In this document: piece after piece, positions 16,601 through 19,600 of the stretch | Layout: every line of letters starts with the position of its first letter | Position numbering within the stretch: position 1 is the first letter of the stretch | Assembly: GCA_964016885.1 (NCBI GenBank) | Contig: OZ024751.1 | Location: 23,188,001-23,252,000, forward strand | Reading direction: 5' to 3' | Length of the DNA: 64,000 nucleotides | DNA from: Eledone cirrhosa | Taxonomy: Eukaryota | The notes under the pieces: model-generated | The model's database searches: none | The model's input: the letters and a program-made list of their open reading frames with translations, nothing else | What the model was told of the DNA's origin: nothing | Position numbers and translations under genes: made by a program

Positions 16601-19600
16601 TGTTAGGTAATTCCGAAGAAAAGGCAAAGGAAAAAAGAGTGCTCTATAATCACTTAGATATTTAATTAGAAAGTGAACAACACAAAATATAACTACTTAT
16701 TCCATTACCAAAGGTTTCTGGATCCCAGACAATATTAATATACGTCTGGGTTCCAGAAACCTTTGGTAATGGAATAAGTAGTTATATTTTGTCTTGTTCA
16801 CTTTCTAATTAAATATATATATATATATTATATAAATATATTATATATAAATATATTTATATTTAATATATTTATATATATATATAATATATTTAATTAT
16901 ATATATAATATATCTCTCTCTACATATAATATATATATTTATATATATAATATATATATATATACATTTATATTATTAAAGATGCGGTTTTTATTATATT
17001 TTAGTTCTATCTGTTAGCTGTTTCTTTGATTGTCATATAAAGATGATGCATTTCCAAAATCTCATTTTACAATATTGAATCTATAGGTAGCTTTGAATTC
17101 TGGAATGTTTTAACAATAAAATACATTTTCAATGGACCATTACGTGGTCGATAAAATAAAGTACCAGTAACGTAACTGGGTCGACTTAATCGACTTTCCC
17201 CTCCCCCAAATTACTGGCCTTGACCTATACTAGAAATCATATTAATAACTGCATTATTTCTTTCCAGGGACTACGCTGAAAAATAAATCTTATTTAGTCA
17301 TTTCATGAGAGTATCTTGGTCAGCCTAGGAACTTTTCATCGTGCCTCGTATTCTAATATTGTAAAGAATTGTTTTTACTTTTGGCACAATTACCCAGTAC
17401 ATTACTGGTACTTTATTTTAATGACCCCGTAAGGATGAAAGACAAAGTTAACCTCGGCGGGATTTGAACAGAGCCCAGCAGGGGACGCAGTTTGCTGCTT
17501 GATATTTTGTGGATATATATATATATATATATATATATATATATATATATATATATATATATATCCACGTGCTATTGAAATGTTGGGTAAATATTCTATA
17601 GCGGTTGGTCGCGAATAGATTGCTGTCGTTTATTTATCTACTGTCTTCATAGTGCCTTTTAATCTTATAGCCTGGTTTAATTGATTTTTTGTGTGCTTAA
17701 TTATGCTAATTGGGAGAGGAAATGGTGTATATATTATCAAATAATTCTATGGACATACTTTATAGTATATTGCTCTGATTATTTAATTTATTAATTCATC
17801 ATTGAGCCACATCGTGAATGGTTGCCAAAACATATATATCTGTGACTTTGTCTAGTTTGTGTATACGTAAATCTTTATATTTAATACTCTCCCATAAGGT
17901 TGAGATGCAATTTCGGCAATATTGGGCTGCGCTTTCTAGCCACCAGCCCACTCACCGTAAGCAACCAATCACATTCTTTCTGACTTGACCACTGCTACGT
18001 CACAGTTTTTAGCCATTTTGAATTCGTTTCTGGCGGGGATCACTTAAGAAAATTATTTGTCCAAATGAGTTTATTTCCTGATGAGTTCGAAGCTCGAGAT
18101 TTTATCCTTAATAGGATATTTCCGAAAGCGAACGAAACCCTAAGGGTAGAAACGTAATCCTGGTATGTGTATATGCATGTTTTCTTCTAACTTTAATTTT
18201 ATACCTAATTGTGTATGGTTGACAGTATATTTAATCGATTTCCACGTGCTATTGAAATGTTGGGTTAATATTCTATAGCGGTTGATCGCGAATAGATTGG
18301 TGTCGTTTATTTATCTACTATTTCTTCATAGGTGCCTTTTAATCTTATAGCCTGGTTTAATTGTTTTTTTTGTGTGGTTAATTATGCTAATTGGGAGAGG
18401 AAATGGTGTATATATATTATCAAATGATTCTATGGACATACTTTATAGTATATATATATATATATATATATATATATATATATATATATATATATATATA
18501 TATACATACTCACACTTTGGCTATTAACCTTTAAAGTAATTTTCAATAATTGAACATGACACTTACACTTACACGCGCGCACACACACACACACACATAT
18601 ATATATATGCATATATATATATATATATATATATATATATATATATATATATATGAAAAATTCGGGACCCCGACGGCTGAGCTCCTACCGTTTCAAACGG
18701 CAGGAGCTCAGCCATCGGGGTCCCGAATTTTTCATATTACCCACTCTACTACCCGAAGTATTGACCAGCAACCACCAACAAACATAACCACCACCACCAA
18801 TAACAACCACCACCACCACCACCAACACCACCAACAACAATAACCACTACCACCACCACCAACACCACCAATAACAACCACCACCGCCAACAACAACTAT
18901 CACCACCAACCACTACTACCAACAACAACAATAACCACCACCACCACCAACAACAATAATAACTACCACCATCACCACCACCAACTACTACCACCACCAA
19001 CAACAACAATAACAACCACAACCACCACCACCACCACCAACGACCAACAACCACCACCACCACCACAACCACCACCACCACCACCACCACAACCACCACC
19101 AATAACAACAACAATAACAACCACCACCGCCAACAACAACTATCATCACCAACCACTACTACCAACCACAACCACCACCACCACCACCACCACCACCACC
19201 AACAACAATAATAACTACCACCATCACCACCACCAACTACTACCACCACCAACAACAACAATAACAACCACAACCACAACCACCACCACCACCACCACCA
19301 CCACCAACCACCAACAACCACCACCACCACCACCACCACCACCAACCACCAACAACCACCACCACCACAACCACCACCACCACAACCACCACCAATAACA
19401 ACAACAATAACAGCCACCACCACCACCAACAACAACAACAACAATAACCACTACCACCACCACCAACACCACCAACAACAATAACAGCCACCACCACCAC
19501 CAACAACAACAACAATAACCACCACCACCGCCCTCAACAACAATAACAACATCCATCAACAACATCAAGAAGAACCACCACCACCGCCCTCAACAACAAT

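Follow-up and report, generated by a model that had tools for sequence, protein, structure and literature searches.

Animal non-LTR retrozymes are non-coding tandem units of low GC content that carry one type I hammerhead ribozyme, occur as monomers and multimers and coexist with Penelope-like elements (PLEs) (PMC7229834; bioRxiv 10.64898/2026.07.22.740005). In the second of these, a 2026 preprint, Li, Clavereau and Pollet consider retrozymes to be non-autonomous PLE derivatives, based on co-occurrence in vertebrates and similarity to pLTRs. Circles were proposed as the source of PLE tandems by Cervera and de la Pena in 2014 (PMC4209133), and weak palindromic helices III that need dimers are described both there and in PMC7229834. 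The PLE features given by Craig et al. in 2021 (PMC8557442) are 5' truncation, partial tandems, inverted 5' arms and a one-ended tail of 30-40 bp; Frangieh et al. in 2024 (PMC11167929) explained such a tail as the stretch between two internal start sites.

The insert studied here is of a general kind that is already described. It is a retrozyme that is non-autonomous and PLE-patterned, in which the tail is unusually long, stem II of the hammerhead is extended and the cut site has left a genomic footprint. All the traits of animal non-LTR retrozymes listed above are shared, with one type I hammerhead per unit and non-coding units arranged head-to-tail without LTR organisation. At 677 nt, the unit is longer than the 150-450 nt of PMC7229834 and lies inside the 51-972 range of the 2026 preprint; its 49-nt stem II arm is unlike animal non-LTR retrozymes. 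The link to PLEs was drawn from co-occurrence and pLTR similarity in the retrozyme papers, whereas here it comes from insertion anatomy, no pLTR relative having been found. Circular RNA was shown for animal non-LTR retrozymes, whereas for the present family it is a putative template.

Compared with GIY-YIG PLEs and pLTR hammerheads, the family displays the same 5' truncation, partial tandems, inverted 5' arm, one-ended tail and two internal starts, as well as AT-rich or (TA)n targets, an enlarged helix II and a palindromic helix III. However, GIY-YIG PLEs carry an ORF and a 30-40 tail, whereas this family has no ORF and a tail of approximately 110 nt. Its start sites end in a target-matching UAUAU, in contrast to the anole element, which starts at a site non-homologous to the cut DNA (PMC11167929). 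Non-autonomous Chlamys PLEs such as MRC1 (PMC8557442) are likewise non-coding, multicopy and head-to-tail, with pLTR-like redundancy. They have 3' sequence in common with autonomous families, in a clade without canonical hammerheads; here, a hammerhead is present and no partner was found. A literature search covering few subscription papers returned no report of the family, nor any of genomic copies whose 5' ends lie at the hammerhead cut of a PLE-type element; work on Terminons and dimeric PLE hammerheads may bear on both points. Hammerheads and retrozymes are not mentioned in the main text of an octopus repeat annotation (PMC13282606).

The window is the whole 64,000-nucleotide stretch of Eledone cirrhosa DNA that was analysed, and positions without further label refer to it.

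Features of the insert and its ribozyme, in window positions (unit positions count from the first base of the insert)
Feature	Position	Strand	Remark
Left target microsatellite, (AT)26 tract	17513-17564		
Non-coding insert, 677-bp unit plus terminal repeat	17565-18453	+	
One 677-bp non-coding unit	17565-18241	+	5'-truncated on the left, with no conserved end there
Tail, unit 207-316	17771-17880	+	Between two inferred reverse-transcription start sites
Type I hammerhead	18074-18152	+	Predicted cut 18148/18149, unit 584/585
Hammerhead stem I	18074-18077/18149-18152	+	
Hammerhead core CTGATGA	18078-18084	+	
Hammerhead stem II	18085-18089/18129-18133	+	Encloses a 49-nt arm
Hammerhead GAAA	18134-18137	+	
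Hammerhead stem III	18137-18140/18144-18147	+	4 bp, near-palindromic
Hammerhead GUA	18146-18148	+	
Cut site to main 3' end, predicted long rod	18149-18453	+	About 300 nt, kept in sister families
Terminal repeat of unit 1-206	18242-18453	+	Ends at the fixed 3' terminus
Right target microsatellite, (TA)n tract	18444-18508		

An earlier note, made from the letters of the window, had described an insert between two TA tracts, with a terminal redundancy of about 205 bp, a period of 677 and no ORF, and each of these points was recovered. The insert lies between the (AT)26 and (TA)n tracts. Its first 206 bp (17565-17770) recur at its end with 199 identities in 212 columns, 7 substitutions and 6 gap columns (94% identity), with a period of 677 at the start of the repeat and 683 at its end. 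The longest stop-free stretch of the unit is 57 codons in six frames. The final TATAT of the terminal repeat runs into the right TA tract, and would be the priming site. The tail is missing at the 3' end of the window copy and is found on the second arm of two-armed insertions; its putative role is assigned by analogy with PMC11167929 and PMC8557442. The stretch from the cut to unit position 206 has a folding z of -2.6 against 60 shuffles. Its consensus comprises 59 pairs across 20 family and sister sequences, with double changes in only 10, and this modelled rod is a candidate binding site for a PLE protein. Just upstream of the hammerhead, at 17965-18022, are CCAAT, TACGTCA and TTTGAA motifs, which may form an internal Pol II promoter. 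A cadherin-domain exon (PF00028, E 1e-7) is encoded on the minus strand at 19780-20100, approximately 1.5 kb from the insert, which could place the element antisense within or next to a cadherin gene. A palindromic element end at 18654-18740 recurs in many TA flanks of other loci.

The size of the family was estimated in the 3.0-Gb assembly, where pattern counts are lower bounds. A search with the unit gave 4,831 first-look candidates; 40 were scored, and full-length matches were 91-95% identical. Exact patterns detected at least 164 hammerheads, at least 374 post-cut 19-mers and at least 717 termini, the multiplicity that had been predicted for the unit. The 3'-end pattern behind the 717 matches picks termini by design, and thus served for copy number and 5'-end mapping only. 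TA tracts flank most copies, and the family is placed in hundreds of TA microsatellites. In such targets a duplication of the target site, which in non-LTR retrozymes is large when present, would blend into the (TA)n repeat. A relaxed hammerhead pattern gave 1,935 related matches, and 30 loci from these comprised 28 of sister families and 2 of the window family. The sister families, at about 65-78% identity, can be aligned along the whole unit and are likewise non-coding. Two or more consecutive hammerhead-bearing units, which the 2026 preprint takes as the mark of an active retrozyme, are present at loci L023, L061, L067 and L105; in the same terms the window copy, with its single hammerhead, would be a monomer. 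The tandem junction and variants are also visible in four contig sets of unknown kind. One sister array (L235, L236; C1:92,985,600-93,016,033) holds approximately 45 units over 30 kb, of which both ends were read, up to the middle 16 kb. Its two ends are of the PLE type and still those of one insertion; between units there are 9-48 base differences, which do not form a star pattern.

The ends of the insertions were then compared. Among 30 loci chosen by their hammerhead, and thus unselected for the 3' end, 25 had this end at unit 200-206, one at 316 and four elsewhere. The unit holds 8 TATAT sites, yet 3' ends concentrate at 200-206. The first 90 insertions from the list of 717 termini, which lie without exception on contig C1, had 5' ends scattered along the unit and lengths from 31 to 1,548 bp; 28 were longer than one unit and 11 reached at least 970 bp. 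The longest insertions exceed 3 units. Since only the 5' end varies, the 1.3-unit length of the window copy is the stopping point of a 5'-truncated cDNA. Random permutation of the unit was ruled out by the 25 fixed ends among 30.

Head-to-head insertions displayed a second fixed site. Of 24 distinct ones (25 rows, L240 being listed twice), 20 were scored as 206/316, and none as 206/206 or 316/316. On inspection, L204, L012 (the same as L067) and the L235 array also pair 206 with 316, and L150 is ambiguous. Thirteen complete two-armed sister insertions, two of them also among the 24, pair 206 with 290-322. L063 was not counted as two-armed; it is a tail-to-tail 206/206 pair with another geometry. 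The two end sites are separated by a tail of approximately 110 nt. Thus the family has a fixed 3' end, variable 5' truncation and partial tandems, together with an inverted 5' arm with a one-ended tail that is longer than the 30-40 described. The arm pairing and the fixed 3' end match the PLE insertion marks of PMC8557442 and the two start sites of PMC11167929, and insertion of the family is very likely of the PLE target-primed type. The earlier note had proposed a PLE-mobilised retrozyme whose copies would differ in their permutation points. The first part is supported by a multicopy, non-coding, hammerhead-bearing unit, PLE insertion marks and no attached ORF in the loci examined; the second is not supported, as the 3' end is fixed near 206 with a second site near 316.

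A complete hammerhead had also been reported inside the unit, and all core motifs and three stems were indeed found. The description of this ribozyme as a textbook example was too generous, given the 49-nt stem II arm, the 4-bp stem I and the absence of any hammerhead in an Rfam search, either at gathering score or at E<=10. Weak Rfam miRNA matches were set aside, as they fall on TA tracts. Position 18073 is A in the window copy and G in most copies; this cuts stem I to 4 bp and places the active fold 2.9 kcal/mol above the minimum-energy fold. Helix I has 5-6 bp in other copies. The motif also departs from the canonical type I layout given in PMC4209133 (6-bp helix I, 4-bp helix II and contacts between loops 1 and 2).

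Genome-wide, the exact hammerhead pattern had 164 matches, versus 0 for a reversed control. Among 31 family and sister sequences, 83.7% of cells were paired and 74 cells carried double changes, scores that are inflated by the relatedness of the sequences; none of 500 shuffles reached either value, and slid controls paired at 35-50%. Stems I and II covary across families. The core letters are fixed by the search patterns, but the covarying stem I and II pairs are not. The distal helix of stem II is paired in only 53% of cells, probably through alignment shifts. Judged from pattern matches and covariation, the predicted hammerhead fold exceeds chance. Stem III of the window family is predicted to fold alone at -1.5 to -3.7 kcal/mol. 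In one sister family stem III is a palindrome, predicted to have no monomer fold and to pair as a dimer.

These observations can be assembled into a mechanism in which the non-coding hammerhead tandem repeat is likely copied into (TA)n tracts by PLE enzymes acting in trans, plausibly from circular RNA. A PLE endonuclease would nick the (TA)n tract, and the free DNA end would prime inside the RNA at the UAUAU (site 206) that directly follows the long rod on its 3' side. Priming by the other strand as well would begin 110 nt downstream, at a second UAUAU (site 316), and give the inverted arm. Synthesis would run back along the unit, in most cases (about 90%) past the hammerhead junction; it would end precisely at the cut in 6-8% and otherwise at random positions. 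Halted after 1.3 units, the window copy would be one such product. The template would plausibly be a circular RNA that has cut itself and been re-ligated. The in vitro insertion of a PLE without need for its hammerhead (PMC11167929) counts against this reading.

The nature of the template was assessed by comparing units within and between insertions. Over 38 elements, divergence was 4.3% within an element versus 7.1-7.7% between elements, and repeats of one insertion shared subfamily variants in 33/34 and 37/38 cases at two columns. Column 79 was dismissed, as it lies beside an indel and is likely an alignment artefact. In 4 two-armed elements, same-unit and different-unit divergences were 5.2/5.9, 5.0/3.3, 3.1/3.7 and 1.9/2.1%. 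By these comparisons, the template units are alike at insertion, which fits one monomer read repeatedly and also a young homogeneous array. Private variants were shared within an insertion in 38 instances and unshared in 220, over 110 same-strand pairwise rows that include repeated pairs and a few neighbouring separate insertions. The tails of inverted arms share private variants with the upstream unit (L112, 0 differences in 136 and 2 shared; L117, 3 shared).

Altogether, we give a circular RNA an even chance of being the template. The main competitor, a linear multimeric transcript of young or homogenised arrays, is a somewhat weaker possibility. It would use the same enzyme and the same start sites, the hammerhead only sometimes trimming the 5' end and array length being restored by duplication at the DNA level. 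Four cut-ended copies hold a further intact hammerhead (L005, L179, L183 and L239) and would most simply be partly cut linear multimers. The middle units of L023, L061 and L105 are near-identical, and the end pieces of L023 and L061 are about 3.5% apart; on this comparison, some multimers grew at the DNA level. Both observations speak for the linear template, as do the 11 of 90 insertions of at least 970 bp, the sister array of about 30 kb and the small proportion of shared private variants. On the other hand, the units of one insertion diverge from each other no further than do repeated copies of a single template unit, and the L112 and L117 tails share private variants with the upstream unit. 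Furthermore, the sister family keeps a covarying hammerhead yet has no cut ends among 100 examined, as expected if monomers were ligated. Neither the private-variant test nor the distance matrix of the array distinguishes a circular from a linear template.

The most direct trace of ribozyme activity comes from the 5' ends. Six of the 90 insertions start at unit 585/586, where 0.27 would be expected from 73 passes (P 4e-7; P 1.4e-4 after correction over 338 windows). Non-T continuations, collected genome-wide, break exactly at the scissile bond in 21 of 23 cases, the other 2 being substitutions. A near-unbiased list, the first 100 of 374 matches, contained 6 exact breaks at the bond and 1 ambiguous one, against 2-3 over the next 12 positions; a figure of 11/100 was set aside, since the list behind it left out intact copies of the window type. 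Three inversion junctions also fall exactly at 585. Just ahead of the junction, most of these ends have T in place of the unit's A (A584), so microhomology does not explain the cut ends. Approximately 90% of reverse-transcript passes go through the hammerhead site. Insertions of this family start at the predicted cut; for the anole element, RNA reads starting at the hammerhead cut were absent (PMC11167929). The cluster of copies starting at the predicted cut suggests self-cleavage of the RNA in vivo, and it is very probable that the ends at 585 record hammerhead cleavage. Cut-ended copies L161-L183 are mostly of one subfamily (ATAA, not ATAC, near the 3' end), which hints that cleavage efficiency differs between subfamilies.

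Alternatively, these ends might reflect reverse transcriptase stalling at the hammerhead fold, with a ribozyme silent in vivo, which we regard as unlikely. Other 5' ends do pile up among the 90 insertions (5 at 164, inside a TATAT run, and 5 at 112-113), although both positions are A/T-rich with ambiguous ends; a pile-up by itself is therefore not unique to the cut site. The sister family with a dimer-only stem III has 0 cut ends in the first 100 of 476 (Fisher P 0.03), so the footprint is not general. A stall at stem III would vanish in this family too, and the contrast between families is thus no proof of cleavage. What favours cleavage over a stall is the exact position at the scissile bond and the omission of A584 in most copies. 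In addition, stem III, at the predicted energies, is far weaker than the rod already crossed, and stem I shows covariation between families. The same ends would be expected from a stall at an unusual ligation junction, which also needs prior cleavage.

A tentative extension of the cleavage reading links the two families. Dimer-type hammerheads would yield ligated circles, on which the PLE would roll from two strand-specific starts 110 nt apart. A longer stem III would permit cutting by a single ribozyme and hence insertions that start at the cut, of which the dimer-only sister would have none. The family with a monomer-folding stem III and its dimer-only sister form a natural test pair, and the two mapped start sites turn the choice between circle and linear template into a simple experiment. 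The family itself provides evidence on insertion at nucleotide level. If this extension is true, the genome would preserve a fossil record of the retrozyme cycle, and with it direct evidence that hammerheads cut in vivo and that PLE-type transposition uses circular templates. The family would then be an old non-coding lineage whose resemblance to the enzyme donor has been lost.

The donor of the enzyme was sought in the same assembly. It contains 10,597 GIY-YIG candidates, and ORFs of 938 and 1,096 aa with reverse transcriptase (RT) and GIY-YIG domains. No ORF of this kind occurs in the unit or in register with the copies examined. Attachment of copies to an ORF-bearing element, which had been named as one case against a retrozyme, was seen in no locus examined: none of the 90 + 30 + 30 loci or the fetched parts of the long array has an attached ORF. 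An autonomous partner sharing unit sequence was found neither in 47 GIY-YIG loci of the 10,597 nor by hammerhead pattern searches. Short-stem-II patterns gave 1 and 5 matches, one of the 5 loci being the match of the other search, and no ORF is attached in the 5 loci. None of the 30 relaxed-pattern loci (of 1,935) continues into an ORF. The PLE enzyme is therefore deduced from insertion anatomy. Three candidates were discarded. A young PLE family beside L068 has no sequence in common with the unit. At L277, a GIY-YIG ORF is followed 1.4 kb later by a sister copy, but this copy begins behind a TA tract and seems to have inserted independently, and the hammerhead near another PLE at L279 is part of a different, 459-bp non-coding unit.

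It is very unlikely that the unit is a pLTR, or the truncated 3' end of an autonomous PLE with unsampled full-length copies. Hammerhead, tail and inverted arms are all pLTR features, and only part of the family was examined. Nevertheless, units follow each other head-to-tail without an intervening ORF in the 90 + 30 + 30 loci and the long-array parts fetched, and the sisters, at 65-78% identity, align over the whole unit and are non-coding too. TA-tailed 3' ends with 5' truncation and inversion are also known from LINEs, which, along with long arrays and DNA-level duplication, could suggest a satellite, Helitron-like or LINE-driven SINE-like repeat spreading without PLE. This is the least probable explanation of all, as the second fixed start 110 nt downstream is tied to the inverted arm and kept across families, a pattern described for PLEs and stated in PMC8557442 to be unseen in non-LTR TPRT.

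Other hammerhead-bearing elements were encountered in the window and the fetched loci. A C-terminal GIY-YIG PLE pLTR at 37850-38150, on the minus strand, carries a hammerhead at 38089 and ends in (TA)n; its family has two ends approximately 57 nt apart and TA tracts in common with many copies of the retrozyme. An apparent 3' end of another PLE family spans 35860-37800, with a hammerhead at 36937 and a second copy at 37711. The 459-bp hammerhead-bearing unit of L279 (6010-6920) is present as two copies in (TA)n, and at least seven further hammerhead families occur in the fetched loci. At about 5500-5600 of L279, the 3' UTR of a GIY-YIG PLE contains, by eye, a hammerhead-like motif of minimal form, whose core shows a U-A variant and whose stem III is a palindrome; it resembles the variant described in PMC4209133.

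Several inverted structures were also noted in the window. The stretch 16597-16810 forms a long, nearly perfect hairpin, and the 3' half of a hammerhead from another family lies in its arms (complete motif in L220); it looks like a two-armed insertion joined inside the ribozyme. Long inverted arms lie at 35182-35412 and 38157-38387 (98%), and at 46690-46958 and 49589-49857 (91%), the latter enclosing a tandem array of 24 copies of 70 bp. Finally, a perfect 198-bp palindrome is located at 61719-62123.
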